From: Candidatus Nanoarchaeia archaeon
GTDB lineage: Archaea; Nanobdellota; Nanobdellia; SCGC-AAA011-G17; JAUYJU01
Length of the DNA stretch: 64,000 bases
Assembly: GCA_030700155.1 (NCBI GenBank)
Contig: JAUYJU010000027.1
Span: 75,484 to 139,483, forward strand
Direction of reading: 5' to 3'
Shown: positions 4,400-58,528 of the stretch, in pieces
Layout: each line of letters starts with the position of its first letter
Position numbering within the stretch: position 1 is the first letter of the stretch
The notes under the pieces: model-generated
Told to the model about the DNA's origin: nothing
Databases searched by the model: none
Seen by the model: only the letters and a program-made list of their open reading frames with translations
Program-made: the position numbers and the translations under genes

Positions 4400-4408
4400 T
4401 ATTAAAAA

Positions 4409-4482: not shown

Positions 4483-4522
4483 ATATGTAATCAAGAATAA
4501 GTCGCTTTTAAAAAGGTTTCCA

Positions 4523-40421: not shown

Positions 40422-40476
40422 GAACACTAATTCATAACTAAATATTTATAAAGCTTTCCTATGATATTACTATCGT

Positions 40477-40563
40477 GGGCGAGTAGTATAGCTTGGACAG
40501 TACGCGACCTTGCGGACAAGGGGTAAAAAGGTTGTAACCGAGGTTCAAATCCTCGCTCGCCCG
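40477..40563 (+). tRNA. tRNA-Arg (GCG) with a 13-nt intron at 37/38 (40516-40528)
   Basis: GGGCGAG/CTCGCCC acceptor, CGAGG-TTCAAAT-CCTCG T arm; removing ACAAGGGGTAAAA gives CGACC-TT GCG GA-GGTTG; TTGC pairs with intron GTAA as the BHB central helix. Confidence 0.85.
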
Positions 40564-40567
40564 TATC

Positions 40568-41409: not shown

Positions 41410-43938
41410 TTAAACGTCAACTATACCTTGTCCTGTTACCATAAAGACTGCTTCTCCGTCTGGCAAGGCAGGAGCGTCCACTAGCTTAGCAACTCTTGTT
41501 CCTTTCTTACCACGTCTTAAATAAATACGATAAGTAGAGTTGTGTACAACAAATCCATTTGCGATATAATTCTCAAACATTGGAACGCTTATATCGTACA
41601 ACGGCTCGCTATTTGGCAAAACTTTTACGCTTCTTACTTTTTCAAGTCTTACCTCGCCAATTAAAAGTTTCTTAATCAGGTTAACTTTCTCAACGCAAGA
41701 TTCTGGCACTTTTGTTTCAGCTAATGCAGCAATAACTCTTTCTAAACTGCTTCGTGAAACAAATTTATACTCAGCAGGTCTACTCTTTATGGTATGGGAT
41801 ATGGATATTCCACATTCTTTCAACAAAGTGATTATCTCTTCTCTTGCTAAAGGTATGATCTCTTTATTGTAAGTATTTTCACAATGAATCATCCATTTTT
41901 CCATTAAGTTTTGTTTATCAGATGCAGTTACACCTATCTCCTTTGCAAACGAATAAAAGTCTTTATTATCAAATAATAAAACCTCGATTATTTGTCCACT
42001 TTTTCTATTGGAGACTGTACGTCTGGATCTTATTCCAAATCTCAATAGTAGCATTTGTATAAAATTCAGAAGTTGTCCGTCTTTTTGACCAATAGTTGCT
42101 CTTGGTCTATTTTTGCTAACGTAACCTTCAGCATCCATAAAGCCTTTTATGAATGCCCTTACAACGTCTTTGGGAGACTTTGAGACAAACAAAAACAATT
42201 TCTCAGTCACCTGTTCCATAAGCATTGCTACTGCCTTACTATTGACAGCAAGTTGATAGCAATTTTTATCCTTAACTTTAGAGATTGAGCAGTCGATATT
42301 AAAAAGTTGCTGACAAATGTCACGATAATGCTCAACTACTTCCAACCTTTGGTCCCTGAATCTTACAGATCTTGAAGAAATATTTCCATCTCCAATGCAG
42401 TAACCTAAAACCTGTGCAAACTCTTCAGTCAAGTTGGCAGGCAAAGTTACATGACGATATTTACAAGTCTCAAATTGTTCAATGTACTCATAAACTTCCT
42501 GACTTACTCCTTGTTCAACAAGTTGTTCTACAACTTCTTGGCCAGTTGGATATCCTTGATTAAGAACTCTTCTGAATTGTCTCGGAGTAATAGAAAGTTC
42601 TTTGCATACGTCTACTCTTCTCAAGCCTTTTTTCTCTAATTCTTCTTTTATAAGGGCTGCACCTTCTCTAGTTATCCTTATCAAATCTTTTTGTTCAATA
42701 ACTGGAAGTTTCTGATACTTACAATCTAGTTCTATGGATTTTAAGTGCATTAAGTAATCCCCTTCATTAATATCTTTAGCCTTTACTTCTGCAACATCAA
42801 ATCCATCTAATTTAAAGAACCTATGTTCTCCAGAAGCCTTAATTCTATTGCCGGTATCAATTTCGTACACTTCAGAGATATCTTTTCTTTTAGAACCCCA
42901 ATCACAATAACCGAAGTTAGATTTCATCTCATTGAAATTAATAGTTGGTAATATGCCGGGTCCAGATATCTTACTTATGGGAGTTATTGTTCCGTCTCCT
43001 AACTGAATTAAAGTATCAGCACTTACACAATTATGTGCCACGATATGACCCCCAATAGCTTCTGTTGGATCTCCAAAGAAAGTATCTGGCTTAGCCATAA
43101 CTTGATTTGTTAGATAAATGGCTAAATCATAAGTATTTGCTAATTTCAACAAAGCATGCATATGTTTATTCAGCTTCTGCTGTCTGTCAGCCAACGTACC
43201 ACGACCAACAAACTCACTTCTAAAATGACCCATCAGAGAATCAACAATTACTAATTTAATTGGAACCCCTTGTTTTATTAGTTCTTCAACTTTCTCAACT
43301 AATAACATCTGATGATCTGAATTAAATGCACGAACACCTTTAACATTTTTCAGAACTTGTTCAGTGTCTAATCCTTTTACTTCAGCAAGTTGCTTAACAA
43401 ATTCTGGTCTTAAAGTACCTTCAGTATCTATAACCGCAACTGCACCTTCAGCACCACCTTTATCTTTAGGTAATTGTACATTAACCATTAATTGATGACC
43501 TATCGAAGTTTTTCCAGAACCATAAGCACCAAAGCACTCAGTTATAGCTCCAGTCTCAACACCTCCGCCTAATAAAGCATCAATAGCCTTGCTTCCAGTT
43601 GAAATCTTGGTTACGTTCTGTCTTTTTTGCAGTAAGTCTAATCCACTTTCAAAACCCATATTTAGATTTTGTCTTGCAGATTGAATTATTTTTCTTGCAG
43701 TTGCTTCTGTAACGCCAGCAATATCAACTAATTCTCCTGCACTTGCAACGGCAATTGTAAGCAAAGTATCAAATCCTGCATCTTTTAATTTTTCGGCTGT
43801 TGCAGCACCAACTCCGGGCAAATCTTGAACAGTAAATTCTTTCTTTTTCTCTTTTTTAACTTCTACAACAGTTTCAGTTTGAATGGATTCAGTTGTAGTT
43901 TGTTCTTCAGTCTCTTTTTTCTTACTCATTGTCTTCAT
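41410..43938 (-). CDS. radA: DNA repair/recombination protein RadA, intein-containing
   Basis: N-terminal HhH DLPGVG, GAYGSGKTS Walker A, IDTEGTLRPE, VDSLMGHFRSEF.GRGTLADRQQKL, TNQV, GGHIVAHN..STYRIYLRRG. Confidence 0.97.
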   Translation of the reverse strand: MKTMSKKKETEEQTTTESIQTETVVEVKKEKKKEFTVQDLPGVGAATAEKLKDAGFDTLLTIAVASAGELVDIAGVTEATARKIIQSARQNLNMGFESGLDLLQKRQNVTKISTGSKAIDALLGGGVETGAITECFGAYGSGKTSIGHQLMVNVQLPKDKGGAEGAVAVIDTEGTLRPEFVKQLAEVKGLDTEQVLKNVKGVRAFNSDHQMLLVEKVEELIKQGVPIKLVIVDSLMGHFRSEFVGRGTLADRQQKLNKHMHALLKLANTYDLAIYLTNQVMAKPDTFFGDPTEAIGGHIVAHNCVSADTLIQLGDGTITPISKISGPGILPTINFNEMKSNFGYCDWGSKRKDISEVYEIDTGNRIKASGEHRFFKLDGFDVAEVKAKDINEGDYLMHLKSIELDCKYQKLPVIEQKDLIRITREGAALIKEELEKKGLRRVDVCKELSITPRQFRRVLNQGYPTGQEVVEQLVEQGVSQEVYEYIEQFETCKYRHVTLPANLTEEFAQVLGYCIGDGNISSRSVRFRDQRLEVVEHYRDICQQLFNIDCSISKVKDKNCYQLAVNSKAVAMLMEQVTEKLFLFVSKSPKDVVRAFIKGFMDAEGYVSKNRPRATIGQKDGQLLNFIQMLLLRFGIRSRRTVSNRKSGQIIEVLLFDNKDFYSFAKEIGVTASDKQNLMEKWMIHCENTYNKEIIPLAREEIITLLKECGISISHTIKSRPAEYKFVSRSSLERVIAALAETKVPESCVEKVNLIKKLLIGEVRLEKVRSVKVLPNSEPLYDISVPMFENYIANGFVVHNSTYRIYLRRGKKGTRVAKLVDAPALPDGEAVFMVTGQGIVDV
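41539..43029 (-). mobile_element. Intein (497 aa) with LAGLIDADG endonuclease and an HTH-like insertion in RadA
   Basis: AHN|CVSADT..ASGEH..QVLGYCIGDGN..FIKGFMDAEG..LYDISV..ENYIANGFVVHN|STY; removal leaves a 345-aa RadA. Confidence 0.93.
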
Positions 43939-44182
43939 CCTCCCTATCTACTAAGAACAATTCTTGTTGCAGATTATGCAAAATAGCTTGTATCTTAGGT
44001 ATATCCGAACGTCTAAAATTAAAAGTTTCAGATCTCCAAACATCATCACCTTTCTTTTTATAGCTCCTAGTTAAAGTTGCGGTCTTAAACTCAACCTCAG
44101 TACCATTATCCAGGGTCCTTGCATTAGCCCAAATGCAACCTTCTATTGCACCTGACCTCCATTTTTTAATTGGCTTGTTCAT
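43922..44182 (-). CDS. Small conserved hypothetical protein upstream of radA, possibly nucleic-acid-binding (likely start ATG 44182)
   Basis: GGAGGT SD; IKKWRSGAIEGCIWAN..TLTRSYK..WRSETF beta-rich pattern. Confidence 0.7.
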   Translation of the reverse strand: MNKPIKKWRSGAIEGCIWANARTLDNGTEVEFKTATLTRSYKKKGDDVWRSETFNFRRSDIPKIQAILHNLQQELFLVDREDEDNE

Positions 44183-45308
44183 CTTTATTACCTCCAAGAT
44201 TGTGATTTGTAATCACATACTTCAAATTTGGTTGCATTGTACACATTACGATCCCAAATTCTATCAGCTTAGTTAGAATCAATTGTTCACTCAGCGATTC
44301 ATAATAAAATATTTCTATTAATTTTATTCCCTTTTCTTTACATCTTTTTTTAGTTTCTATATCTCGTGCAAATTGCTTTTTTAATCCAGTTAAATCCCCA
44401 TGAAAAAATTTAACAAATTCAAAATGCTGTATACCTTGGTATTCAAAAGCAATTTTCAAATTGGGTAAGAATATATCTAATTCATAACCATCTAAAGCTT
44501 CTCTATCGCGATATAATATAGTTTCGCCTAAGAATAATTCTCGAACATATTTCAATAATTCCAATTCCCTACTATATCCTTTACCTATGACCGGCAGTTT
44601 TAATAATTGCCTTCGTTCATTTTCTAGTCTCCTAACTCTTTGATAATTTAATTTATCAGTCTCTAATTTTCTAGCACGATTTTTAATTCTCCATAACTTA
44701 TTCATTTCTTTTTTCCTGGCGTGATTATTCATAACCCATCTTGAATATCTTTTCTTTACGCCCTCTTTATTAATTTCTGCCCATTTTTTCTTATATTGTT
44801 TTTTAGAACCTATTGCACAAGTGTCACATCTTAAGATTGTAGGGCTTCGTCCAGTTAAATTAAGATTACATTCAACGCACTTTTTATTTTTCTTTAAATT
44901 TAGAAACTTATTTGCCTTCGTCTTAATTGCACCTATAGATCTCTTTAATTTTTTAGCTAATATCTCATCTTCAATAAAAGAATAATTCTCTCTTAAGTAT
45001 TCATAATCCGCTTCAGTCCATAAGTTTTTAGGTTTTGAACCATTTTTTACTGCTTCTCTCAAATACAGCTTAAATTTCATATCCTTACTACGAATTTCAG
45101 AACAAGGTTTACATCTCAATGCATTAAGTAAAGAAGTTATATCCTTACTGCACATTAAACATTCTTTATATTTTTTTAGACCCATACCCCTATTAGCCTT
45201 GGCTCTAATAGCAAATATAGATCTATTAAGCTCTTTAGATAAAGTAAAATCATCTAAATAGGGATAATTTTTCTTCAGAAAATCCAATTCAAGTTTAGTC
45301 CATTTCAT
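44166..45308 (-). CDS. Free-standing putative endonuclease: 2x (HTH-like + C4 Zn finger) repeats, basic helical linker, C-terminal DUF559/Vsr-like nuclease
   Basis: WTKLELDFLKKNY..LNRSIFAIRAKANR..CLMC..CKPC and WTEADYEYLRENY..LKRSIGAIKTKANK..CVEC..CDTC; ELDIFLP..AFEYQGIQH..RD....C...GIKLIEI. Confidence 0.75.
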   Translation of the reverse strand: MKWTKLELDFLKKNYPYLDDFTLSKELNRSIFAIRAKANRGMGLKKYKECLMCSKDITSLLNALRCKPCSEIRSKDMKFKLYLREAVKNGSKPKNLWTEADYEYLRENYSFIEDEILAKKLKRSIGAIKTKANKFLNLKKNKKCVECNLNLTGRSPTILRCDTCAIGSKKQYKKKWAEINKEGVKKRYSRWVMNNHARKKEMNKLWRIKNRARKLETDKLNYQRVRRLENERRQLLKLPVIGKGYSRELELLKYVRELFLGETILYRDREALDGYELDIFLPNLKIAFEYQGIQHFEFVKFFHGDLTGLKKQFARDIETKKRCKEKGIKLIEIFYYESLSEQLILTKLIEFGIVMCTMQPNLKYVITNHNLGGNKDEQAN

Positions 45309-45501: not shown

Positions 45502-45891
45502 ATGCAAAAAAAAGAGGTTAAAGAAGCTATTGAAGAAATCCAGTTTCATATGGCAAAAGCAAAAGGTATTATTATTTACTTTAGAAAAAGTTCTATAAAA
45601 CATTTACAAAAAGAGCCTATTGAAAAGTTTAGGCTGCCGAAGAAAGAATTAAAAGAATTAAATATATTATTTGAGAATGTAATCAAGATTTCAAATAAAC
45701 TTCTTGACAACCTCAAAAATGACAAAGAATTATCAGACATTTTTAAAAAAAGTGCAATGGATCTTGCAGCAACAGAAAGAGAATTAAGTATAAGGTTACT
45801 TTCAAAAACTGATTCTCTGGATGTGCTTATGGGTGGAGAAGCAGCGGACAAACTGGAAGAGATTTACGAATTAACAAAAGTTATGGGTTAA
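45502..45891 (+). CDS. All-helical hypothetical protein
   Basis: 129 aa, K/E/L/I-rich amphipathic helices. Confidence 0.55.
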   Translation: MQKKEVKEAIEEIQFHMAKAKGIIIYFRKSSIKHLQKEPIEKFRLPKKELKELNILFENVIKISNKLLDNLKNDKELSDIFKKSAMDLAATERELSIRLLSKTDSLDVLMGGEAADKLEEIYELTKVMG

Positions 45892-45892
45892 A

Positions 45893-46258
45893 ATGGCAAT
45901 TACTCCTGAATTAAGAATACCACTTAAAATAATTGAAAATTCTGTTTTAAACTCATTAAATAGGATAGAAAAAATAAGGACAACTTTTTTAGATAAAATT
46001 GAAGTTATGGTAGAAATTGTTGGTATTCAAGAAAATATACATAAAATCAAAAAAGCCCTAGTCAAGGCAGTTGAATTAACTATTGATAAAAAAATGACAA
46101 AAATTATAAAAAGTTTAAATGTAGCGAATAGATTAGCAAATGAAATTATTTTGCGTATAGGTCCTTTAGAAGGAGAAGCATTTGCCAAGGAACTTGTAGT
46201 TTTAGAAAAAAGATTCATTGAAATGACTAACAATTTAAAGGAAACGTATAAAAATTAA
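45893..46258 (+). CDS. All-helical hypothetical protein, paralogue of the downstream ORF
   Basis: IIENSVLNSLNRIEK and IIKSLNVANRL resemble motifs in 46260-46649. Confidence 0.55.
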   Translation: MAITPELRIPLKIIENSVLNSLNRIEKIRTTFLDKIEVMVEIVGIQENIHKIKKALVKAVELTIDKKMTKIIKSLNVANRLANEIILRIGPLEGEAFAKELVVLEKRFIEMTNNLKETYKN

Positions 46259-46259
46259 A

Positions 46260-46649
46260 ATGGATAAAAAAACAACACAAGTATTACAAATAGAATTGAT
46301 GCTTATAGAAACTTCTGCAACAGTTATAGAAAAAAACGCAACTGAAAGTTTGAAACGTATTGAAAAATCAGTAATAAATAGAGAAGAAATATATCAACTT
46401 GCAGATTTTATATTAGAAAAATCAAAAAATATAGGAACAGCAATAACTAATATTCTTAAACTTGAAGATGTACCTGAATTTATTATTAAGGAGTTAAAGA
46501 GTGCAAATTTTCTACTCCACCAGATAGGGGAAAGAGTAGAAACAATTTACCCCGAAGAAAAAGAAGAGAATTTTAGGATAATTATTGAAGATATATTATC
46601 CTTTGCTTATAAAATAATCCAAAGAGTAGAACCTTTAATAGCAAAATAA
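46260..46649 (+). CDS. All-helical hypothetical protein
   Basis: VIEKNATESLKRIEK and IIKELKSANFL. Confidence 0.55.
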   Translation: MDKKTTQVLQIELMLIETSATVIEKNATESLKRIEKSVINREEIYQLADFILEKSKNIGTAITNILKLEDVPEFIIKELKSANFLLHQIGERVETIYPEEKEENFRIIIEDILSFAYKIIQRVEPLIAK

Positions 46650-47045
46650 TTAGTATCTTGAAGTTCTTGTTACTGTTCTTCCATTGTAATCATAAGAATA
46701 AGTATTGGTATATCTTGGAGTTGTATAAGAATCTCTTGAAGAAGTATAATCTGAAGTTCTTGCAGGCCTATAATATCTACTTCCTAAACATCTAACAGAA
46801 TATCCTCTACCAGCATATCTGTTATAATAAGTCCTGCTTGCATCTCTTCTTGAACACCCATCATAATATCTATCATAATCATCATGATAAGCTGGTCCTA
46901 CTGAACCTCTAAACTCTATTTCTTTTTCAAAAGTATTTCCATTAGAAGTTGTGCTATAAGTCCTTTCATAATAGTACAAAGCATCAACACTGGCAAAGCT
47001 AATTAAAAATAAAATTACAAAACTTAAAATTAATCTTTTCTTCAT
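46650..47045 (-). CDS. Secreted Tyr/Arg/Thr/Ser-rich low-complexity protein
   Basis: Signal peptide MKKRLILSFVILFLISFASVDA; mature part rich in Y/R/T/S with two Cys. Confidence 0.6.
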   Translation of the reverse strand: MKKRLILSFVILFLISFASVDALYYYERTYSTTSNGNTFEKEIEFRGSVGPAYHDDYDRYYDGCSRRDASRTYYNRYAGRGYSVRCLGSRYYRPARTSDYTSSRDSYTTPRYTNTYSYDYNGRTVTRTSRY

Positions 47046-47716
47046 TTTCTACCTTCGAAAATTTTTGCGCGACGTACCCCAAGGTCGGAACCCGAGTACT
47101 GCGGATACCTGAAGCAACCCAGGCCAGCCCAAACGGAATACGCACCAAACAACGCGACAGTTCCAACTCTTGGACAACCATAATATAAATCCCCTTTCTT
47201 TATTTTATTCTTTGGAAATCCTTGTGAGGTTGGATTCTTTAACCAAGACTCTAAATTAATCCCTGGAAGTCTATCTTCCATCAAGCAACCTTCTAAAGGT
47301 TCAGTAACTTGAGTTAATTTCCCAGATGAATCAAATTTAGGATAAGTTATTGTTCCTTCTTCAAATTTAGCATCTATCCATTCCCCCCTATAATGACCTC
47401 TAACTTCAAATATATCGCTTCTAATAGCTTCAACAACTTTTTTGGGAATCTTTTTTCTAGCGCAATTATACATTGGTTTATCAGAAAATAATAAGTTTGC
47501 AAAATCAACCCAAATATTTAGTGGTAACATAAATGCCTCTTCTTCCGGTAACTTACGCTTTAGATAATCCCAACTTAGATCAACACAACTTCTTGCAATA
47601 TCAATTTGTAAATCTGGATATTGATAAGCTCCTTTAGTTCTTTCATGAAGATGTATAGCTATAGATAATCTAGCTTCACTCAAATAATCTTTTAAAATCG
47701 TTTGACTATCTACCAT
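47042..47716 (-). CDS. Probable DGR target protein (C-type-lectin-fold variable protein, AvpA-like)
   Basis: C-terminus PRVGTVALFGAYSVWAGLGCFRYPQYSGSDLGVRRAK fits the archaeal DGR variable-region pattern; own TATA TTTATAAA at 47740-47747. Confidence 0.8.
   Translation of the reverse strand: MVDSQTILKDYLSEARLSIAIHLHERTKGAYQYPDLQIDIARSCVDLSWDYLKRKLPEEEAFMLPLNIWVDFANLLFSDKPMYNCARKKIPKKVVEAIRSDIFEVRGHYRGEWIDAKFEEGTITYPKFDSSGKLTQVTEPLEGCLMEDRLPGINLESWLKNPTSQGFPKNKIKKGDLYYGCPRVGTVALFGAYSVWAGLGCFRYPQYSGSDLGVRRAKIFEGRK
47066..47158 (-). repeat. DGR variable repeat (VR) core
   Basis: Hand count on the coding strand: 56/93 G+C and only 8 A; NNT/NNC codons alternate with fixed codons; ends GGGGTACGTCGCGC (IMH-like). 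Confidence 0.72.
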
Positions 47717-47720
47717 ATAT

Positions 47721-48218
47721 CTAGATTATCCAAGATATATTTATAAAATTATGCTTTACTACTAATACTACATCAAGTAAAACAAGCAAAACAAATAAAA
47801 CAGATTCTAAAATTCCTCCAGTGGTTATCGGTCCTGAAATCTTAAATCTAGATATTGGATAAAGAAAATCTATTCCACTTTTAGTAAACATATCTCCCAA
47901 TAAATGTGAAAAATAACCAATAGCTAAAGCCAACCCAATAAATCCAAATCCAAAATAATCAAAAATTAAATACAATCCGATTACTGGGAAAATAGAATGA
48001 AATATTCCCCTATGACTAACTACCCAAGAAATCATCCATGAGAAAGGGAAAAACAATTTAGAAATTTTGCTTTTAGGATGATCAATATCTGGAAATGAAC
48101 TGGCAATAGCAACAATAACTACAAATAACCATCTAGGACCAGTAAATATTTCATTAATAAAACTTAAACTAAAAAGCCCAACAAACAGTCCCAAAGCAAA
48201 ATGCGTTCTAAACATCAA
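47721..48218 (-). CDS. YdjM/LexA-binding-like inner-membrane metal-dependent hydrolase
   Basis: RTH, PDIDHP, HRGIFHS, YFSHLLGDMFT..G. Confidence 0.85.
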   Translation of the reverse strand: MMFRTHFALGLFVGLFSLSFINEIFTGPRWLFVVIVAIASSFPDIDHPKSKISKLFFPFSWMISWVVSHRGIFHSIFPVIGLYLIFDYFGFGFIGLALAIGYFSHLLGDMFTKSGIDFLYPISRFKISGPITTGGILESVLFVLLVLLDVVLVVKHNFINISWII

Positions 48219-49240: not shown

Positions 49241-50050
49241 TTATCTCGCTGATATTTTTAAAAACGGTGACTTATTTAAATCTATCGCAAATCTATAGTC
49301 TATATTACCGATAAACGCAGTATCTACTTTTGAGTTAACTATAAAAATTACAACTCCATCTTCTTTATCAAAAGACCACTTGAAATCTCTCTCTAAATCA
49401 GGTTTTATTTTATCCTTACATAAGTTATAGGCAGATTTTTCAGGATTGAACAACAAATTCTCTTTTCCAACAGCACTTCTTATACAACTCATAAAATTCT
49501 CTTCATATAATTGCGAGATAATTCGCTTATAATCCTCCAAATAAGTATTTATTTTTACCTTAAAATTTGGTTTGATTTCATAATTTACTTTATAATCAGC
49601 AGTTTTTCTTAATTTTAATGGTTGATTTGATTCTCCAATAATGAAAGCGTCGTCTTTCTCGTATATCAGGCTAAATTTAGAAAATTCAGGCACTACAAAA
49701 TAATTTTTTTCTGTTAATTTCTTGAATTCTTCAGCGAACTGTTTTTCAAAAACACCATTATAGGCTTGGATTGGATCACATTCATTGATTAAAGTCCAGC
49801 TTTCACAATCAACAACACCATTTTCAGCTAAACTTTTAACAGTATTATATCCTGCAAACTTAGCCAACTGATCAATGTAAAACATTTTTTGTTCTCCTTC
49901 TATTTGTAATTTAACAATGTCTGTTTGTAATATTCCAAGTGTTACTGTTGCCGGTTGATTTGCAGCAGAATAGACAGCAAAAGCTGCGTAAATCATTAAA
50001 ATAATTCCAAAGATATTCACTAATGGGAGTAATATTCCTTTTTTATTCAT
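49241..50050 (-). CDS. Pilin-like protein with class III signal peptide
   Basis: MNKKG|ILLPL followed by a hydrophobic helix and a soluble domain. Confidence 0.65.
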   Translation of the reverse strand: MNKKGILLPLVNIFGIILMIYAAFAVYSAANQPATVTLGILQTDIVKLQIEGEQKMFYIDQLAKFAGYNTVKSLAENGVVDCESWTLINECDPIQAYNGVFEKQFAEEFKKLTEKNYFVVPEFSKFSLIYEKDDAFIIGESNQPLKLRKTADYKVNYEIKPNFKVKINTYLEDYKRIISQLYEENFMSCIRSAVGKENLLFNPEKSAYNLCKDKIKPDLERDFKWSFDKEDGVVIFIVNSKVDTAFIGNIDYRFAIDLNKSPFLKISAR

Positions 50051-50054
50051 ATTC

Positions 50055-50558
50055 TCACTCTAATCTATAAAAATCGATTTTAATTGGTTTTTCACTTTCA
50101 TAATTAGGTATCAACTGTTCAGCATACCAAGCCGAATCCTTTCCAGAGAGACTTATAAATTTTTGAACATCATTTACTGTATAACTATATCCACTATAAA
50201 TCTCTTCAAAATTATGTATCTCAAATAATTGTTTGCCTTCACTATCTAAAACAAACATAATCCATTCAAAATCCGGTTTAAAATTAGCTTCTGTATACAT
50301 TTTAAAAAGTTCAAAATCATTAGTATTTACAGAATCAGCAACTAAATCAGAAACAGTTTTTTCATCGTTAACATATGTCATCATATAAACTAATAGCTCC
50401 TCTCTTGCCTCTATCTCAGGTCCAAATCTGCCTATAACTTCTTGTTTATCCCCACCATAGAACAAGCTTAGTAGAGCAAATATTATAACAGCAACTGCAA
50501 TAAATAATATACTTGTAAATATATCAGCAAATTCTTCCTGGCCTTTTTTGTTAAGCAT
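50055..50558 (-). CDS. Pilin-like protein (likely start ATG 50558)
   Basis: MLNKKG|QEEFADIF followed by a hydrophobic helix. Confidence 0.65.
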   Translation of the reverse strand: MLNKKGQEEFADIFTSILFIAVAVIIFALLSLFYGGDKQEVIGRFGPEIEAREELLVYMMTYVNDEKTVSDLVADSVNTNDFELFKMYTEANFKPDFEWIMFVLDSEGKQLFEIHNFEEIYSGYSYTVNDVQKFISLSGKDSAWYAEQLIPNYESEKPIKIDFYRLE

Positions 50559-51009
50559 TTTGTAGCACCGCATTTATCTTGAGTTTTCCTTTTTGAAACC
50601 CTTCCTCATAAACTAGGATATTTTTTTCATAATTAAGACATTCATAATTCTTAAAATCACAAAGCCTCTTATTCACAAGATGAACTTTCTCATTATTATA
50701 AACACTCAGGGTTTTATCACCATAAGTTAACGCAAATTCTGCAGAAAATCTGCTCAATCTTATACATTCATCAAAAGTTTTTGTGTTAAATTTTTTAACA
50801 TCAATAATTAATGGTCTTTCCCTCACATCTTCATAAGCAAAACAAGAGTAGAGTGCTTTCTTCACTAAAGTATTTATTTCAATTTCACCAGCATTTACTT
50901 CTCTACTAACATCCAAAGCTAGAATCATCAAAATCATTCCAGTAACAAATAATAAATAAAAGATTCTAGCAATCATATATACGGTTTCTTTGGTAGTAAT
51001 TGCTGGCAT
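50551..51009 (-). CDS. Minor pilin-like protein (likely start ATG 51009)
   Basis: MPA|ITTKE (Glu at +5) then a TM helix; no basic leader; paired Cys. Confidence 0.55.
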   Translation of the reverse strand: MPAITTKETVYMIARIFYLLFVTGMILMILALDVSREVNAGEIEINTLVKKALYSCFAYEDVRERPLIIDVKKFNTKTFDECIRLSRFSAEFALTYGDKTLSVYNNEKVHLVNKRLCDFKNYECLNYEKNILVYEEGFQKGKLKINAVLQNA

Positions 51010-51010
51010 T

Positions 51011-51355
51011 TTAGATTTTTGTAATCTCCAGATCATAAGATCCTATTTTTTTTATATTAATATTATAATCCGTAGGTGCATAACTGTAGAGCACAGGAGT
51101 TTCTTTTCTTACAGCCACAGTTCCTTCAGCAACAGCAACATTAAACTCATATTTCATTGGATAATAAACAGTTACTTTTCCAGTGTCATATAAATTAATA
51201 GCCATTGCTATATCTCTAGAAATATAAGTCTGATGAAAAACTTCTCCTTTTGCTTCTCCATTTATTTTGCCAAATAAAGTAACAATAATAATGGCAGCAA
51301 ATATCATAAAAGCTATGTAAATTATAGTTCTCTCTTCCACACCTCTTTTATTCAT
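51011..51355 (-). CDS. Pilin-like protein (likely start ATG 51355)
   Basis: MNKRG|VEERT followed by a hydrophobic helix. Confidence 0.65.
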   Translation of the reverse strand: MNKRGVEERTIIYIAFMIFAAIIIVTLFGKINGEAKGEVFHQTYISRDIAMAINLYDTGKVTVYYPMKYEFNVAVAEGTVAVRKETPVLYSYAPTDYNINIKKIGSYDLEITKI

Positions 51356-51360
51356 CAACA

Positions 51361-52062
51361 TTATACAAGTTCTGCTTTCAGTTTACTATATCTTTCAATA
51401 TTAGCTTTAATCTGTTCATTAGTAGCATGTTCATTTATATAAACATAAATCGCATCTTCACCTTTAAAGACCTCTAAGTAAAGTCTTGTAGAACCCAAAT
51501 CAGGTTCTCCGATATCACATTCGCTCCCATATAAAAAAAGAGCTTCATATTCTTGATTTCCAGTTAAAGGATGTTTAACACTCATTTTTGCACCAGCAAA
51601 TCCACCTTGCATGGAGTCATCACTTGGTGCTAAAAAAATAATTTTTTCATCAAAATCTAAACAATCCTCTGGTGGATGCTGATCTCTATCAAAATCCCCT
51701 CCCGCTTTAGTTGCAGTATGTAAACATAAGCCAGCTTTCCCAAAAAGTTGAGGTGGTTTAGTTGCTGGTTCACCAGTACACATAGTTACTTCCAAATCCC
51801 TATTATGATTATATCCAACTAAAATTAACCCATCTTGCAAATAAAAAGCACGTGGATTTTCTAAATTAGAAATAAATGGTTCAGCTTTCTCAATTAATGC
51901 TCCTACGGCAGCCCACAAACCATGAAAATTATTTACAGAACCTTCATCAACAACAAATTCAAACAACCCCATAAAACCCATGCCAATGGCAAGTGAAGCA
52001 AGAGTTATTATAACTCCTAAAATTATCCCAATAATTGCTGAAGGAGTTAAGTTTATAGCCAT
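51361..52062 (-). CDS. Pilin/adhesin-like membrane-anchored protein
   Basis: N-terminal hydrophobic helix without a basic leader; Cys-containing exported domain; own TATA at 52086-52093. Confidence 0.55.
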   Translation of the reverse strand: MAINLTPSAIIGIILGVIITLASLAIGMGFMGLFEFVVDEGSVNNFHGLWAAVGALIEKAEPFISNLENPRAFYLQDGLILVGYNHNRDLEVTMCTGEPATKPPQLFGKAGLCLHTATKAGGDFDRDQHPPEDCLDFDEKIIFLAPSDDSMQGGFAGAKMSVKHPLTGNQEYEALFLYGSECDIGEPDLGSTRLYLEVFKGEDAIYVYINEHATNEQIKANIERYSKLKAELV

Positions 52063-52102
52063 TAGATAATAAACTCAAAAAGAACTATATAAAGTTTTAG
52101 TC

Positions 52103-52483
52103 TTAAGCTGCAGGTTGAACAGTTTCTTGAGCTTTACAAATATCTCCACAAGTTACTCCAAGCTCTTCACAAAAAACTCCAATTTCGTCATCGCCTTCTA
52201 CTTTACCATCATTATCCCTATCTATATCAAAATCAGCTGTACAAAATGCAGATTTTGAAGGATCAGGTAACAATTTAGCTTGATCACATCTCTGATGGCA
52301 AGTCTCAACTGCAATTACTTCACTAGTACCGGCAGTTGTTCCATAGAAAACTTCTCTTACAGTTTTTGTTAGACCCGCTGTTCCACCTAAAAAGAATGTA
52401 ACAACAACGATTAACACAAGAACTACCAAAATACCAAGAATTACAGTATTTAATGTCAGATCTACACCCTTTTTATTCATCAT
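52103..52483 (-). CDS. Candidate major pilin
   Basis: MNKKG|VDLTLNTVILGILVVLVLIVVV; six Cys; DRDNDG loop; own TATA at 52504-52511. Confidence 0.72.
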   Translation of the reverse strand: MMNKKGVDLTLNTVILGILVVLVLIVVVTFFLGGTAGLTKTVREVFYGTTAGTSEVIAVETCHQRCDQAKLLPDPSKSAFCTADFDIDRDNDGKVEGDDEIGVFCEELGVTCGDICKAQETVQPAA

Positions 52484-52718
52484 ATATTCTAAGTTTTAAC
52501 GTATTTATAAAGGTTATGGTGGGAATTAAAAGAAAAATAGCCATAGGCTCAATATCTAAAGGTGGTAAATCTTCAGGAATAACATTTTCTCGCAATTCAC
52601 TTAATTTTTGTGTCTGAGACCTGAATTGGGTACTAAAAATAAATATAACTGCTAATAAAACAATTAAAACAATCATCCATTTTACAACGGTTTCGAATTG
52701 CATGCCTTTTTTATCCAT
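52473..52718 (-). CDS. Short pilin-like protein
   Basis: MDKKG|MQFETVVKWMIVLIVLL. Confidence 0.65.
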   Translation of the reverse strand: MDKKGMQFETVVKWMIVLIVLLAVIFIFSTQFRSQTQKLSELRENVIPEDLPPLDIEPMAIFLLIPTITFINTLKLRIYDE

Positions 52719-52719
52719 T

Positions 52720-52842
52720 TTAACCTACATTGAACCAATTCAAAAAGATTTCTTTTAAAACATTTATTTCCTTTACAATAAAAAATAAAGCTATAACAAC
52801 AATTACCATAATTACTATCTTTGCAACAGTTTCAAATTCCAT
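52720..52842 (-). CDS. 40-aa micro-pilin-like ORF without leader (not in ORF track)
   Basis: GGAGGT SD; MEFETVAKIVIMVIVVIALFFIVKEINVLKEIFLNWFNVG*; resembles the mature N-terminus MQFETVVK of the next gene. Confidence 0.6.
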   Translation of the reverse strand: MEFETVAKIVIMVIVVIALFFIVKEINVLKEIFLNWFNVG

Positions 52843-52985
52843 TAAAATAACCTCCATATCTTAGAGGCAATATCCATTGCTCTTTCCCTCATAGCATAAA
52901 CAAATAGTATAGCCACTATCAAAACAAGTAACATAATCATCAGCATTCCAATATTATCCCAAATCCAATTAGCTTTTTTATCCAT
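52842..52985 (-). CDS. 47-aa micro-pilin-like ORF (not in ORF track)
   Basis: MDKKA|NWIWDNIGMLMIMLLVLIVAILFVYAMRERAMDIASKIWRLF*. Confidence 0.65.
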   Translation of the reverse strand: MDKKANWIWDNIGMLMIMLLVLIVAILFVYAMRERAMDIASKIWRLF

Positions 52986-52986
52986 T

Positions 52987-54012
52987 TTAATTCACAATTA
53001 TATCACATAACTTTGTTTCAACTTCATTATCTCCATCTTTTATTTTAATTTTTTGGTCAAATGCCCCCTCAGAAGGTAAAACAGAAATTCCACCAACACC
53101 TTTACATTTTGGACAATCAGCAAATGCTTTTGAAGCTGAAGTATAAATCGCATAACCTCCAGAGAATGCTGCAAATGCTGCACCTCCGCCCATCGCAGCA
53201 ATCATACCATAACCAGCAGAAGTTGCTCCAAATACAGCTAAAGTCAATCCACCTGTTAAGATAGCAGATCCAACTAAAACAATTCCTCCAGCAATAGCTA
53301 AACCATAAACATTAGCAGAAGATTTTGATTCTGGTTTATACATATTTACTAACACAGACGTACCTGGTAAAATTATTGAAGTTTCATCTGCATTTTTAGC
53401 CGCTTCCAAATCTCCTCTCTCAGCCCTATAAAATAATTCATAGTAACTATCTTCTTTTCCACTTGGAGAGTGAGTCATTAAATAAGAGGTCATACCTTTA
53501 ATCGACCTTTGATTTACAATTTCTTTAATCTTAGTTTCATCCATGCCTGGTTTAATTCCGCTAGTCATCCAAGCTTTCAAATCGTCATCAAATAAAACAG
53601 TATCACAAATTAAACAATAAGATAATCCATCATCATCCCAATTTGAAAAGGGGTCTATTTTTCCAGCACCAACTTTATTCCAGCAACTTAACATGGCATC
53701 TGCAATAATTTGATGCGCTGCATCTTGATCTATTTTATCACCAGTAACAACATCGGCTTTCTTAATCATTAATTCATTTCTTGAGCAATCTAACTTCACT
53801 GTTGGTCTACCTGTGCCTTTTACAGTCGGTATATCCTTGCTTCTAGAAGCAGCTTCAATGCTTTGTCTGCAACTAAATTCTTCTCCTTTTCCACCAACGC
53901 CCTCATACAGAAAAACTACAACCAATATTAAAACAACTGCGCTAATTAAAACAATTATTAACATCCCAACATTTTCAAATTCCCATGCACCTTTTTTATT
54001 TAAGTATGACAT
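52987..54012 (-). CDS. Large pilin-like protein with Cys-rich domain and an internal Gly/Ala-rich hydrophobic hairpin
   Basis: NKKG|AWEFE (Glu at +5); C..S; CW; YCLIC; C-terminal GLAIAGG..GGYAIY hydrophobic segment. Confidence 0.7.
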   Translation of the reverse strand: MSYLNKKGAWEFENVGMLIIVLISAVVLILVVVFLYEGVGGKGEEFSCRQSIEAASRSKDIPTVKGTGRPTVKLDCSRNELMIKKADVVTGDKIDQDAAHQIIADAMLSCWNKVGAGKIDPFSNWDDDGLSYCLICDTVLFDDDLKAWMTSGIKPGMDETKIKEIVNQRSIKGMTSYLMTHSPSGKEDSYYELFYRAERGDLEAAKNADETSIILPGTSVLVNMYKPESKSSANVYGLAIAGGIVLVGSAILTGGLTLAVFGATSAGYGMIAAMGGGAAFAAFSGGYAIYTSASKAFADCPKCKGVGGISVLPSEGAFDQKIKIKDGDNEVETKLCDIIVN

Positions 54013-54094
54013 TTTTAATAATCATGTAAGCTAAGATGACAAAAACTAATACCAATATTAGAACTACTATTTCTTGCATCTGCCCCTTTTTCAT
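53996..54094 (-). CDS. 32-aa micro-pilin-like ORF (not in ORF track)
   Basis: MKKG|QMQEIVVLILVLVFVILAYMIIKNVILK*; first ORF after a TATA-like CCTTAAAT near 54118-54125. Confidence 0.6.
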   Translation of the reverse strand: MKKGQMQEIVVLILVLVFVILAYMIIKNVILK

Positions 54095-54167
54095 TATTTA
54101 ACATCTCTTTCCTTGATATTTAAGGTTTTCCAATAAATTTAAATATACACTAAGGCCTATTTCAAAT

Positions 54168-54755
54168 ATGCCTAAAAAGAGTATTTCTAGAAAGGATGGT
54201 ATTAAAGAGATTACAAAATTAGAGAGAGAACAGATACAACTAGAAAAACAACAGTTACAAGAACAAAAAAAGATGCAAGTTCTTGAAAAAAGACAGTTAG
54301 AAGAGCTTGCAAAATTGGAAAAATTAGAAAAAGAGATAAGGTCAGAAGTAAGACCTCATCCCCTAAGAGATATAACTTATAGAGATTTAATAAAAGCAAC
54401 TATAGGTTCAATTGTAGGTATGGTTGCTCACTTCACTTTTATAGAAGGAGTCCATATAGCAGAAACAATTACAATTGCAAGAGCATCTATACTTTACCTT
54501 TTATCTTTCTTCCTTGGCGGTTCATTGTTGTACCTAACAGGTTTTAGAAAAGTTAAACAAAAATTAGTTTTAAAGATACTTCCTCTAAGATTAACAGTAA
54601 TCTATTTAACTGCGTTAGTCTGGATAGTTTTAGTGTTATTCACATTCGGAATTGTAGATTTAACAACACAATTCAATGAGATATATAAACAAGTCGCTGT
54701 AATCTCTATAATAGCAGTTATTGGAGCATCAGCAGCTGATTTAATTGGAGAATAA
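54168..54755 (+). CDS. DUF2391-like four-TM protein with N-terminal coiled coil
   Basis: Q/E/K-rich N-terminus; RDLIKATIGS; C-terminal IGASAADLI. Confidence 0.65.
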   Translation: MPKKSISRKDGIKEITKLEREQIQLEKQQLQEQKKMQVLEKRQLEELAKLEKLEKEIRSEVRPHPLRDITYRDLIKATIGSIVGMVAHFTFIEGVHIAETITIARASILYLLSFFLGGSLLYLTGFRKVKQKLVLKILPLRLTVIYLTALVWIVLVLFTFGIVDLTTQFNEIYKQVAVISIIAVIGASAADLIGE

Positions 54756-54756
54756 A

Positions 54757-55050
54757 ATGATAACAGCAGAATTACAAAAGATAAAACAATTGAAAAAAAG
54801 TTTTCACGATGAGTTACTGGAACTTTTAGCAGCAATAATTAGGATTATTGAAACTAAGGGAGAAGTCAACGAAGCTTATATCAACAAAGCAAAAAAAGCA
54901 GCAGAGGGTTTAAGGAAAATATACCAACTAGAAGAAAATACAATAAAAGAAAGAACATTAAAATTACTTCTAATCTATCTCAAAAGAAAAGATATAGAAA
55001 AATTAGAAAGTGAATTATCTAATATTCTCGATATAATAAAAAAATATTAA
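54757..55050 (+). CDS. Helical hypothetical protein (likely start ATG 54757)
   Basis: GGAG SD at 54747-54750; K/E/L-rich. Confidence 0.5.
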   Translation: MITAELQKIKQLKKSFHDELLELLAAIIRIIETKGEVNEAYINKAKKAAEGLRKIYQLEENTIKERTLKLLLIYLKRKDIEKLESELSNILDIIKKY

Positions 55051-55475
55051 ATTGGTAACTTCAAAGTTCCAGCAACAAAGGGTTCTAAGAATGGCCAAAT
55101 ATAAGGTGAAGTTGTTATCAAAATTGCAATAACAAAACTATGTGCCCATGTTTCTCCTATAGAAGGTCCTAAACCACTTGATTTTATTACCGCAGCTGCT
55201 GCATGAACTTTAACCATAGCAAGTAAACCAATTGCAATTCTTATTATTAATATATTAGAAAGGATAGGTATTGTTTCTAATCCAGGGATCACTGAATAGA
55301 TAAAATCAACATTCATAGCTAAAAACACAAAGAACATTGTAACCAATAATGCATGCCACCCATGTTTTAACCAATGACTTCCTCTAAAAGCTTCATCTTT
55401 ATGAACTAAAAACATCTCATATAATCCAATTACTAATCCAATGTATACTGCAGGTAAAAAAATAAATTCAGCCAT
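55047..55475 (-). CDS. Multi-TM membrane protein of the pilus locus
   Basis: FIFLPAVYIGLVIGLYE..HKDEAFRGSHW; four hydrophobic segments. Confidence 0.65.
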   Translation of the reverse strand: MAEFIFLPAVYIGLVIGLYEMFLVHKDEAFRGSHWLKHGWHALLVTMFFVFLAMNVDFIYSVIPGLETIPILSNILIIRIAIGLLAMVKVHAAAAVIKSSGLGPSIGETWAHSFVIAILITTSPYIWPFLEPFVAGTLKLPI

Positions 55476-55479
55476 TATC

Positions 55480-56312: not shown

Positions 56313-56337
56313 ATCTAGAACTACAGTTTAAAGGTAT

Positions 56338-58497: not shown

Positions 58498-58528
58498 GTT
58501 ATAACCTTAATTTTCAAGATTTATAAAG

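Follow-up and report, generated by a model that had tools for sequence, protein, structure and literature searches.

The question raised by this locus is whether the G+C-rich end of an otherwise AT-rich gene, found in a 64-kb stretch of DNA (64,000 nt, hereafter the window) from a Candidatus Nanoarchaeia archaeon, is the variable region (VR) of a DGR target whose template repeat (TR) and reverse transcriptase (RT) lie elsewhere, and if so whether that region is still being rewritten. No prokaryotic system other than DGRs is known to hypervary proteins in a targeted manner, and DGRs are believed to play a central part in the adaptation of ultra-small symbiotic archaea and bacteria to hosts and viruses. 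DGRs of DPANN archaea and non-adjacent DGR targets have both been documented already (PMC5758913, PMC8144416, PMC5006420). The gene and its parts are as follows.

47042..47716, minus strand: target gene (224 aa, ATG to TGA), taken from the ORF list
47159..47716, minus strand: scaffold-coding part, residues 1-186, of ordinary AT-rich composition (G+C 0.321)
47079..47158, minus strand: putative VR of 80 nt, made up of codons 187-212 and a further GG and collinear with the TRs of relatives
47057..47083, minus strand: IMH-like element CTTGGGGTACGTCGCGCAAAAATTTTC, 27 nt, at and past the 3' boundary of TR homology, encoding LGVRRAKIF

The original prediction assigned a G+C-rich, A-poor end to the gene at 47042-47716, and its figures proved exact. 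Read on the coding strand, the 93 nt from 47158 to 47066 have a G+C content of 0.602 (60.2%) and contain exactly 8 A; the rest of the target gene has a G+C content of 0.321 and is 36.6% A. Among all 93-nt segments of the 64 kb (mean G+C 0.321, sd 0.050) this one lies 5.6 sd out. A G+C content of 0.59 or more is reached by just 0.014% of such segments, and 8 or fewer coding-strand A per 93 nt are seen nowhere in the window other than at this gene end. Islands with a G+C content of at least 0.55 number four in the 64 kb: three are tRNA genes (715-791, 4408-4483 and 40476-40564), and the fourth, at 47051-47179, is the 3' end of the target gene and the sole non-tRNA island in a window of 32% G+C. 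In the 78-nt core of the VR, 65% of third codon positions are G or C and 0% are A; for the 240 nt of the ORF that directly precede the core, the corresponding figures are 19% and 41%. Because A is lost at synonymous third positions, the depletion is a nucleotide-level one that goes beyond amino-acid choice.

Six homologues of the target protein were found, along with 1109 representative clusters at E ≤1e-3, and the family comprises more than 1000 clusters at 50% identity. The related loci that were retrieved (referred to by L numbers) all derive from Nanoarchaeota, Woesearchaeota and Pacearchaeota. In L003, L006/L005 and L025 the target proteins are full-length homologues of the window protein and adjoin a TR and an RT; by BLASTP, the window protein is 38% identical (E 3e-35) to the 262-aa ORF at the junction of L006 and L005, 32% identical to the L025 target (266 aa) and, within the core, 45% identical to the L003 target (287 aa). 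In a neighbour-joining tree it clusters with L001, L018, L017 and the TR-linked L005a. The cassette in these relatives consists of a TR followed directly by the RT, and is located 0.3-4.7 kb downstream of one to four target genes. L006 and L005 are consecutive 8-kb tiles of one contig, and all four targets there must therefore lie within 4.7 kb of their single TR. RTs were identified by motif and local HMM beside homologous targets in L003, L005, L007, L009, L011, L012, L013, L021 and L025, with the motifs LGN(L/Y)TSQ and YVDD (ORFs with GNLTSQ/YVDDF). The cassette RT corresponds to phrog_1423, "Reverse transcriptase" (E 9.5e-122), and PF00078 was present in 120/120 listed RT homologues, of more than 7900.

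An adenine-tolerant scan inside the retrieved loci located TRs in L003, L005, L007 and L011, and cognate TR/VR pairs are available for L003, L005/L006 (four VRs), L007, L011 and L025. Over 80 nt, the paired VRs and TRs of the relatives disagree at 8-16 of the TR adenines and at 0-1 positions with another base, and in L025 the mismatches are adenine-only across the first 66 nt. Differences confined almost entirely to TR adenines are the signature of adenine-mutagenic reverse transcription and cDNA replacement of the VR.

The window segment aligns codon for codon with the VRs that have cognate TRs. It keeps the relatives' frame and fixed codons, its variable bases fall on adenine columns, and 17-19 of the 21-24 adenines in the family TRs are replaced by another base in it. 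Comparison with four template repeats of relatives predicts 13 variable codons between 47152 and 47084 (L189, G191, Y193, V195, W196, G198, G200, F202, R203, Y204, Y207, G209 and D211). The alternation of NNY and fixed codons described in the original prediction is real in the window VR, with the correction that TTT (F190), there listed as variable, is a fixed codon for a Phe that is near-invariant (at least 90% of 104 family members). Across 19 VRs, which is a comparison between homologues and not of variation within a population, the 21 columns that are adenine in the TR, every one of them at codon position 1 or 2, have an entropy of 1.46 bits, and the 54 non-A ones have 0.44 bits. A search pattern built from the fixed bases of the window VR and two homologues matched 15 sites spread over 11 contigs from related MAGs. 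The proposal that the segment is a DGR-type VR is thus supported at the sequence level by full-length homologues that adjoin a TR and RT in related DPANN archaea and by the adenine-only character of their TR/VR mismatches.

The boundary of the VR is marked by a change of sequence. TR/VR alignments end at CTYGG, after which the VRs continue with GGTACG and the TRs with AATA; six TRs (L003, L005, L007, L011, L021 and L025) read CTYGGAATA where the window VR has CTTGGGGTACGTCGCGCAAAAATTTTC. The same 22-26 nt flank is present in L001, L017, L014 and ten metagenome loci, and the loci that bear it include cassette-linked VRs (L025, and L021 with two VRs, a TR and an RT) as well as an unrelated 281-aa protein (L030). 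Across CTYGGGGTACGTCGCGCAAAAATTT, the window flank and that of L025, which adjoins a TR and RT, have one difference (CTT vs CTC). Its occurrence in L025, L021 and unrelated proteins argues that the flank is a cis element of a retroelement lineage. Two consecutive CGN Arg codons are kept in the element, and CGN makes up 12% of Arg codons in the window.

By analogy with Bordetella phage BPP-1 (Mtd VR, IMH/IMH*), CTTGGGGTACGTCGCGCAAAAATTTTC would act as the IMH that marks the VR as recipient. The two systems share adenine-specific mutagenesis and a GC-rich 3' recipient element that differs from its post-TR counterpart, in this family GGGGTACG... as opposed to GGAATA.... The downstream hairpin/cruciform of BPP-1 has a parallel in many family members, in which the recipient element is followed by a GC hairpin of 5-6 bp (GAA or GTTA loop) that compensatory changes preserve, but the window-type flank lacks it and has just an A5T4 palindromic tract. 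The systems differ in that the ORF and gene lists of the inspected archaeal cassettes show no avd gene, whether next to the VR, TR and RT or in the gaps separating them, and in that the target is a cellular protein here and a phage tail fibre there. By sequence, moreover, the scaffold is not an FGE-type CLec, as neither the window protein (E ≤0.1) nor the 104 family members (E ≤0.01) matched FGE-sulfatase (PF03781) or DUF1566 in the domain that bears the VR.

No TR or RT had been noticed by eye in the 64 kb, and systematic scans gave the same answer. An ungapped adenine-tolerant scan with three VR definitions and a search with two consensus TR patterns (up to 3 mismatches) detected no TR in the window, and gapped blastn-short with the VR and the predicted TR detected none in the window or in L020. 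A motif scan of the window yielded no RT, and an HMM built from four cassette RTs found none either when run on the window and on L020 in all six frames, where its best E values were 0.016-0.07 and its scores 8 bits or less. The "YLDDF" of the ORF at 44166-45308 was considered as an RT motif and rejected, that ORF having no Pfam RT match. The 5.8 kb past the right window edge, available from a Logan contig, contained neither TR nor RT; at the left edge the corresponding contig, of 2.5 kb, lay within the window. Neither was thus found in the ~70 kb around the target gene, 47 kb to one side of it and 17 + 5.8 kb to the other.

A cognate TR of the window VR would be expected to match GCGNNGTTTNNTGCGNNTTCCNNTNGGGCTNNCCTG...CTTGGAATA, or the pattern GCGNNGTTTNNTGCGNNTTCCNNTNGGGCTNNCCTGNNTTGCNNCNGGNNTCCG and then ...CTTGGAATA. 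A window-specific TR/VR pattern had zero matches in JGI metagenome contigs and IMG/VR, which indicates that the organism of the window is absent from those sets. A scan of GTDB genomes retrieved neither the window's genome nor any TR, its pattern having required the VR-type end GGGGTNCG, which TRs, ending in GGAATA, could not match. When the predicted TR-encoded peptide was used as a protein query, four small TR ORFs of other genomes came up, none of which fits the window VR. The idea of a remote (trans) target stands as far as a DGR-type VR without TR or RT in the window is concerned, and the cognate TR was not found in the collections searched.

With a probability of roughly 0.6, the window gene is a non-adjacent target whose VR is overwritten, now or until very recently, from a TR-RT cassette elsewhere in the genome. 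In such a system, cDNA from the cassette would replace the window VR, which the IMH-like element would mark as recipient, and some 13 variable residues, encoded by AAY-, AGG- and GAT-derived codons, would allow on the order of 10^11-10^13 combinations. The product would be a small variable ligand-binding protein belonging to a DPANN-specific family of DGR targets. On this account the locus would be a non-adjacent target, well supported but rather ordinary, of a mutagenesis system that is already known. The case for activity of the window copy rests on composition and on the intact IMH-like element. The window VR has a GC3 of 0.65 and an A3 of 0.00, and TR-linked VRs have values of 0.50-0.69 and 0-0.04, respectively; how decay looks is shown by the orphan homologue L018, the VR of which has drifted to a GC3 of 0.31. 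No variation within the population is visible: a second assembly of the same sequencing run, the only independent one, is identical over 13.8 kb including the VR, consensus assemblies being of a kind that does not reveal minority VR variants.

A less probable reading, though the strongest of the competitors, is that the gene descends from a DGR target whose cognate TR-RT has gone, leaving a frozen VR, which would now change as any coding sequence does, and a protein with one fixed binding site. The ~70 kb free of TR and RT around the gene fit this. The closest homologues of the window protein (L001, L002, L017 and L018) all lack an adjacent cassette and sit in housekeeping contexts (by SerRS, by PolD DP2, and within the S19-L22-S3-L29 ribosomal operon), an arrangement that fits a clade that lost its DGR equally well. 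L018 is drifting toward AT, the 90% protein cluster of the target has a single member and thus contains no protein variant, and AvpA homologues without a DGR have been reported from Woesearchaeota (PMC5006420). Against an old fossil stand the synonymous sites of the window VR, which are indistinguishable from those of TR-linked VRs, and the 27-nt IMH-like element, which is intact and retains its rare CGN codons. The AT pressure of the genome would erode both the VR composition and the IMH-like element once homing stopped, so that any orphaning would need to be recent. It is on the synonymous-site composition of the VR that ongoing or recent homing from a remote DGR is favoured over an old fossil.

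A wider scheme, which we regard as rather doubtful, would make the window gene one member of a cassette-less target clade dispersed in DPANN core regions, with one DGR, elsewhere in the genome or on another replicon within the symbiotic consortium, diversifying a dispersed regulon of binding proteins in trans and a mobile IMH landing pad recruiting genes to it. Such cassette-less targets occur within a ribosomal-protein operon, next to replication genes and, around one type-IV-pilus-like cluster, at three different insertion points; all carry the same ~24-nt IMH-like flank, which also ends unrelated protein scaffolds.

It is improbable that a DGR acting in trans on this gene resides on a different replicon (for instance a virus, a plasmid or the symbiont's host), with the IMH-like element serving as a shared landing pad. 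The distribution of the 22-26-nt flank, which recurs on the VRs of three or more unrelated protein scaffolds and in numerous MAGs and metagenomes, would be expected of such an arrangement, as would the many flank-bearing loci without TR or RT in the retrieved DNA, but many of these RT-less loci are merely short contigs. Every TR-RT found is on an archaeal-looking contig beside cellular genes (in L003, for example, ribosomal protein and GlmS-like genes), and remote targets are not expected of phage-borne DGRs (PMC5758913). The suggestion that the DGR might reside on a virus finds no support in three IMG/VR scans: the family VR pattern and the generic TR pattern, like the window-specific TR pattern, had zero matches among the viral contigs.

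That the segment is unrelated to DGRs, being a compositional accident, a horizontally acquired fragment, a structured RNA or an effect of a Gly/Ala/Arg-rich protein, can be dismissed: no TR was found that would prove the DGR link of the window copy and the segment is indeed rich in Gly, Ala and Arg, but A is depleted at synonymous third positions, the alignment to VRs with cognate TRs holds codon for codon, homology to DGR targets spans the whole protein beyond the island, and Rfam gave no match at E ≤1 over 46600-47800, on which ground the structured-RNA explanation was rejected.

The 224-aa target protein has no signal peptide or TM segment that could be seen by eye. Searches with Pfam returned nothing for it at E ≤0.1, and the 104 family members are likewise without a Pfam match; NCBIfam and PHROG models also gave no match to the target protein. 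Near-invariant columns of the family consensus define the motifs PWRxEWLDA, LMxDKxPGI, NxTxQGLP and LYYWxPR in the scaffold part. A CLec fold has paired N- and C-terminal beta-strands, two helices about perpendicular to each other and an antiparallel sheet of four strands that bears the VR. The confident AlphaFold2 model (pLDDT 95.9, pTM 0.92) is compatible with it in the order of its secondary-structure elements: beta, alpha, alpha, (insert helix), beta x4, ..., beta-beta (VR), beta. Foldseek against the PDB gave a best E of 0.14 and no match at E ≤0.001; among the top 34 matches were five C-type-lectin-like domains (CLEC12A, CLEC-2, LLT1 and mincle) at ranks 2, 4, 20, 26 and 34, with TM-scores of 0.26-0.48 normalised to the target. 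Profiles of 7 and of 104 family members matched no PDB chain at E ≤0.3, and no AvpA-like chain at E ≤10; AvpA was absent among the 50 PDB Foldseek matches listed. The earlier designation of the product as a CLec-type protein is therefore weakly indicated by these lectin-like matches, and it is not borne out by sequence matches to solved structures or by AvpA motifs. On the favoured reading, the variable residues would form a binding surface on a domain that may be C-type-lectin-like, made up of two of its beta-strands and of loops.

AvpA and AvpA-like proteins are DGR variable proteins of Nanoarchaeota and Woesearchaeota in the DPANN (Handa et al. 2016, PMC5006420), and the window protein resembles them in several respects. 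Both are small (about 200-260 aa), single-domain DPANN proteins without a signal peptide and with the VR near the C-terminus, and both have about 12-13 variable, mostly AAY-derived residues around a fixed aromatic (F190 here, F185 in AvpA). In both, a non-variable IMH encodes the last beta-strand and some homologues lack a DGR. The window family nevertheless has no detectable sequence similarity to AvpA: the AvpA motifs GXXVVVYAH, HPXXXPFXG and RFXGV are absent, by reading, from the window protein and the family consensus, which have PWRxEWLDA, NxTxQGLP, LYYWxPR and LGVR instead, and the tail after the VR is about 12 residues here and 46 in AvpA.

Non-adjacent and remote DGR targets have been documented (PMC5758913, PMC8144416). 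In the survey of Wu et al. (2018), 73 non-adjacent targets belonged to 45/372 DGRs, and for 10 DGRs the distance to a target exceeded 100 kb, the remote ones occurring in lineage 4 and its neighbours only and not in the CPR/DPANN set (PMC5758913). The window gene would be comparable to the TvpA paralogues of Treponema denticola and the targets of Wu et al., in which the gene with the VR is remote from the TR-RT and several targets depend on a single TR; in the present family, four targets share one TR in L006/L005. The difference is that there the TR is known and targets were assigned by A-to-N-only differences, whereas here the assignment draws on homology, composition and the IMH-like element. 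Metagenome surveys detect RT-adjacent targets only, a limitation stated in PMC8144416, and cassette-less targets would hence be missed systematically. The present locus shows that such targets can be recognised without their TR, three signs being sufficient: the VR is homologous to VRs linked to a cassette, its synonymous sites are GC-rich and free of A, and an IMH-like element specific to the lineage is present. The target family, for all its more than 1000 clusters, is without a Pfam, NCBIfam or PHROG model. If the window copy is active, it offers a defined locus at which trans-homing in DPANN archaea could be measured from read data.

The neighbouring features on the same strand are the following.

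46650..47045, minus strand: downstream gene, 131 aa, whose start overlaps the target stop codon (ATGA)
47721..48218, minus strand: upstream gene for a YdjM-like membrane protein (Pfam PF04307, E 2.3e-27)
47736..47748, minus strand: TATA-like box TTTTATAAATATA, from sequence reading only

The 131-aa downstream protein has an N-terminal hydrophobic, signal-like segment followed by Tyr/Arg/Ser/Thr-rich low-complexity sequence, and has no Pfam, NCBIfam or PHROG match; its gene may be co-translated with the target. In cassette-type loci the corresponding region is the site of the TR, and TR scans there were negative. The YdjM-like gene stops 4 nt before the target start codon, and RPA, YdjM, target and 131-aa genes possibly form one operon. 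The TATA box that had been ascribed to the gene, TTTTATAAATATA, is centred ~26 nt upstream of the target ATG within the 3' end of the upstream ORF, and could be the target's own promoter for a leaderless mRNA, AT-rich octamers being common at 32% G+C. Strict synteny of the target with the pilus cluster was rejected, the position of the target differing in three genomes. In the window itself the pilin-like gene array is present ~1.5 kb from the target gene, as had been stated, and the position of the target at the end of a string of pilin and pilus-assembly genes suggests a link to cell-cell attachment.

The 224-aa ORF at 47042-47716 on the minus strand was confirmed, and near its 3' end it carries a compositional anomaly confined to a single segment. 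On the coding strand the 93 nt from 47158 to 47066 have a G+C content of 0.602 and contain 8 adenines, exactly as the original prediction had stated, against a G+C content of 0.321 and 36.6% A in the remainder of the gene. Across the 64 kb, 93-nt windows have a mean G+C of 0.321 (sd 0.050) and only 0.014% of them reach 0.59; three of the four islands with a G+C content of at least 0.55 are tRNA genes and the fourth is this segment, and nowhere else in the window does the coding-strand adenine count drop to 8 or below in 93 nt. No Rfam match was found over the target region at E ≤ 1. Third codon positions in the 78-nt core of the variable region (VR) are 65% G/C and 0% A, versus 19% G/C and 41% A in the 240 nt directly upstream in the same ORF, so the anomaly lies at the nucleotide level and does not reflect amino acid choice alone.

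The protein has no match in Pfam, NCBIfam or PHROG. The first homologue search returned six proteins of 36-42% identity, each on a single contig, and a profile search extended these to 1109 representative clusters at E ≤ 1e-3, 371 of them at E ≤ 1e-30; no relevant Pfam family was found in the 104 members scanned. Two homologues on long contigs (loci L001 and L002), from genomes of ~31% G+C, have the same GC-rich, adenine-poor C-terminal segment. A degenerate pattern made from the fixed bases of three VRs matched 15 sites in GTDB species-representative genomes, on 11 contigs and in 12 stretches, all of them in MAGs labelled Nanoarchaeota, Woesearchaeota, Pacearchaeota or "archaeon"; it had no match in IMG/VR.

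When these loci were scanned for a template repeat (TR), allowing mismatches wherever the candidate template has adenine, L003, L007 and L011 each proved to have a TR some 290-380 nt downstream of the VR, and in L005 a single TR serves four VRs. Cognate TR/VR pairs, compared over 80 nt, disagree at 8-16 positions where the TR has adenine and at 0-1 where it has another base. The ORF directly 3' of each TR contains the motifs PLGN(L/Y)TSQFFAN and YVDDF and matches phrog_1423, "Reverse transcriptase" (RT), at E 9.5e-122; its family has more than 7900 members, with PF00078 in all 120 among the matches listed. These loci are textbook diversity-generating retroelement (DGR) cassettes with the layout target(VR)-TR-RT, and the ORF and gene lists of those examined include no avd gene. 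One Woesearchaeota contig is covered by the consecutive tiles L006 and L005; its sole TR is preceded by four paralogous targets, at 4.7, 3.7, 2.9 and 0.4 kb upstream, and the ORF at the junction of the tiles is homologous to the window protein over the full length (38% identity, E 3e-35). A further full-length homologue with an adjoining TR and RT is found at the metagenome locus L025, with mismatches only at adenines over the first 66 nt. In the L025 cassette (2326-3505) the TR has an 18-nt insertion relative to its own VR, and two TR-encoded peptides, P0278 and P0279, contain the same "KS..(E/K)..D" insert. The L025 RT occupies two reading frames (2466-2831 and 2732-3505), through either decay of the cassette or a sequencing error.

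Codon by codon, the window VR (47158-47079) is collinear with the VRs and TRs of these relatives. Twenty-one columns have adenine in at least three of the four TRs, all at codon positions 1-2, and among 19 VRs their mean entropy is 1.46 bits, versus 0.44 bits at the 54 non-A columns. Of the 21-24 adenines in the family TRs, 17-19 face a different base in the window VR, the outcome that would be expected of heavy A-to-N mutagenesis. The variable codons predicted by comparison with the TRs number 13: L189, G191, Y193, V195, W196, G198, G200, F202, R203, Y204, Y207, G209 and D211. The alternation of NNY and fixed codons noted originally fits this pattern, but F190, which had been listed as variable, is a nearly invariant aromatic in the family and may be analogous to F185 of the archaeal variable protein AvpA (PMC5006420). 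Positions 196 and 203 alternate among R, G and W (AGG/GGG/TGG) across homologues; L189 (TTG) needs a template with AAG, not AGG, and the L025 TR has exactly AAG at the equivalent codon.

Homology between TR and VR ends at CTYGG, followed by GGTACG... in VRs and AATA... in TRs, as would be expected if these were the IMH and IMH* known from the Bordetella phage DGR and from archaeal DGRs (PMC5006420). The window flank (47083-47057) reads CTTGGGGTACGTCGCGCAAAAATTTTC, and nearly identical stretches of 24-26 nt occur in L001, L017 and L014, despite proteins only 37-42% identical. The flank retains two consecutive CGN Arg codons in genomes with a CGN share of 12% among Arg codons, which points to constraint at the DNA level. 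A scan of JGI metagenome contigs for CTYGGGGTACGTCGYGCAAAAA gave ten loci, among them L025, described above, L021, with two VRs, a TR, the start of an RT and a target of a different, shorter protein family, and L030, with an unrelated 281-aa protein whose sole common stretch with the window protein is LGVRRAKIF. These loci make the flank a cis element of this retroelement lineage, one validated in complete cassettes. The element CTCGGGGTACGTCGTGCAAAAATTTT, which encodes LGVRRAKIF, ends at least two other protein scaffolds in the JGI loci (L021, L022, L024, L026, L027 and L030), one of them a short family of ~124-175 aa (…KAEWLEDL…YYWAPT.RENAA.R…) and the other the 281-aa protein of L030, which suggests that it is portable between target genes. 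Other family members have a second flank type, GGGGTACG followed by a GC hairpin of 5-6 bp whose loop is GAA or GTTA, 3' of the VRs in L003, L007, L009-L013, L019, L004:5402-6175 and L006. This hairpin, which resembles the hairpin/cruciform of the Bordetella phage DGR, is kept by compensatory changes (CGTGCC-GTTA-GGCACG versus CGCGCC-GTTA-GGCGCG; GCTGC-GAA-GCAGC versus GCAGC-GAA-GCTGC); the window-type flank has an A5T4 palindromic tract instead.

To judge from sequence, the window locus appears to work like published DGR systems: the core of the original prediction, a DGR target, is upheld by homology to validated targets, the adenine columns and the IMH-like element, while hypervariability, action in trans and a fold of the C-type-lectin (CLec) kind are points that we infer. 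The absence of a TR or RT from the 64 kb, originally noted by eye, also held, as adenine-tolerant scans, mismatch-tolerant consensus patterns and gapped blastn recovered only the VR itself and an HMM of four cassette RTs had no match in any frame. A Logan contig from run SRR13727534 reaching 5.8 kb past the right edge of the window likewise contains no TR or RT, so that 47 kb to one side of the gene and about 23 kb to the other are free of a cassette. The window-specific TR/VR pattern had no match in JGI metagenome contigs or IMG/VR, nor did a generic TR pattern in IMG/VR, and a protein search with a predicted TR peptide gave four small TR ORFs of other genomes, none of which fits the window VR. 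A tree of the conserved core puts the window protein with the homologues at L001, L018 and L017, and also with the TR-linked L005a; no cassette adjoins the closest homologues at L001 (beside SerRS), L002 (beside the PolD large subunit) or L018, nor was one found in the available DNA of L017. The L018 homologue (P0005, 277 aa; L018:953-1786 on a 2987-bp Logan contig from run SRR12113420) is inserted in a ribosomal-protein operon, in the order S19-L22-target-S3-L29, where start and stop codons overlap. Published work covers DGRs of Nanoarchaeota-related archaea, the CLec-fold protein AvpA and its DGR-less homologues (PMC5006420) and, for bacteria, non-adjacent and remote targets (PMC5758913); such targets are an acknowledged blind spot of metagenome surveys (PMC8144416). 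The window locus is best filed with these known systems, as a cassette-less target whose product belongs to a large protein family that lacks a Pfam, NCBIfam or PHROG model.

We put at about 0.6 the probability that this non-adjacent target is serviced by a DGR currently or was until very recently. That the VR is instead a recently orphaned fossil is a lesser possibility, though a real one: the Logan assembly of run SRR13727534, the same run that underlies the window, agrees with it at every base of 13.8 kb that include the VR, and the 90% protein cluster of the target holds no variant protein, which argues weakly against activity because consensus assemblies hide minority variants. Against a fossil, synonymous sites of the window VR (GC3 0.65, A3 0.00) fall within the range of TR-linked VRs (GC3 0.50-0.69, A3 0-0.04) and far from the gene's own background (GC3 0.19, A3 0.41). 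The orphan VR of L018, still A-poor, has drifted to GC3 0.31 and looks like a decaying orphan, so decay is visible when it happens. This composition and the intact IMH-like element favour recent maintenance of the window VR. Location of the DGR on another replicon is improbable. That the target has no relation to a DGR can be set aside as very improbable.

By sequence, the target falls outside both the AvpA and the FGE-type families of targets; AvpA motifs are absent, and sequence profiles had no match among solved structures. AlphaFold2, given a 104-sequence alignment, returned a confident single-domain model (pLDDT 95.9, pTM 0.92) in which the VR forms two strands (187-192 and 197-203) plus loops and the IMH-encoded LGV/RRAK forms the last strands. 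Foldseek found no PDB match at E ≤ 0.001 (best 0.14), and C-type-lectin-like domains are among the top 34 (CLEC12A twice, CLEC-2, LLT1 and mincle; target-normalised TM 0.26-0.48). The best structural match across the libraries, ahead of every PDB hit, is part of a large, uncharacterised phage protein (BFVD A0A8S5P140_2, Myoviridae sp. ctrCp2; E 5.7e-3, prob 0.99, TMq 0.50 over 280 columns). A CLec-like core interrupted by large inserts would be plausible; in AvpA such a core was recognised only after crystallography. No signal peptide or TM segment was seen by eye in the target.

The target is the penultimate gene of a tightly packed minus-strand string, given here in order from the ATPase.

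Genes of the minus-strand string
60667-62985, minus strand, T2SSE-type ATPase
58529-60667, minus strand, T2SSF-like protein
next, minus strand, two large membrane proteins
49241-54012, minus strand, at least six genes with class-III-signal-peptide-like N-termini (MNKKG..., MLNKKGQ...)
next, minus strand, RPA-like OB-fold protein, then YdjM-like protein
47042-47716, minus strand, target
46650-47045, minus strand, 131-aa ORF

The 131-aa ORF overlaps the target stop codon (ATGA) and may be translationally coupled to it; its product, with no family match, has a hydrophobic signal-like N-terminus followed by Tyr/Arg/Ser/Thr-rich low complexity (YYYERTY..., DRYYDG..., RYYRPART...). A type-IV-pilus-like cluster (window 49241-62985 and 63067-64000, together with L020, the Logan contig that runs past the right edge of the window) is conserved in L001:12300-20335 and in L017. 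The L001 and L017 targets occupy two other insertion points of this cluster, where the window genome has no such gene, so that three genomes have three target positions, all in or beside it. This recurrence is suggestive of a functional link, although shared ancestry with local rearrangement could also account for it.

Directly downstream of the target operon, on the opposite strand (45502-46649, plus strand), are three consecutive small ORFs of 129, 121 and 129 aa, helical and Glu/Lys/Ile-rich by eye and without significant family matches, which may be paralogues. At 41410-43938 (minus strand) a RadA/Rad51 recombinase gene is split by an intein that carries a homing-endonuclease domain of LAGLIDADG type (Pfam: Rad51 1e-80, LAGLIDADG_3 6e-22, Intein_splicing 2.8e-19). 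An 89-nt tRNA-like gene at 40476-40564 (plus strand), given a four-base "anticodon" (cgga) but no amino acid identity by ARAGORN and scoring 46.9 bits against the Rfam tRNA model, is probably an archaeal tRNA that contains an intron or is atypical in some other way.
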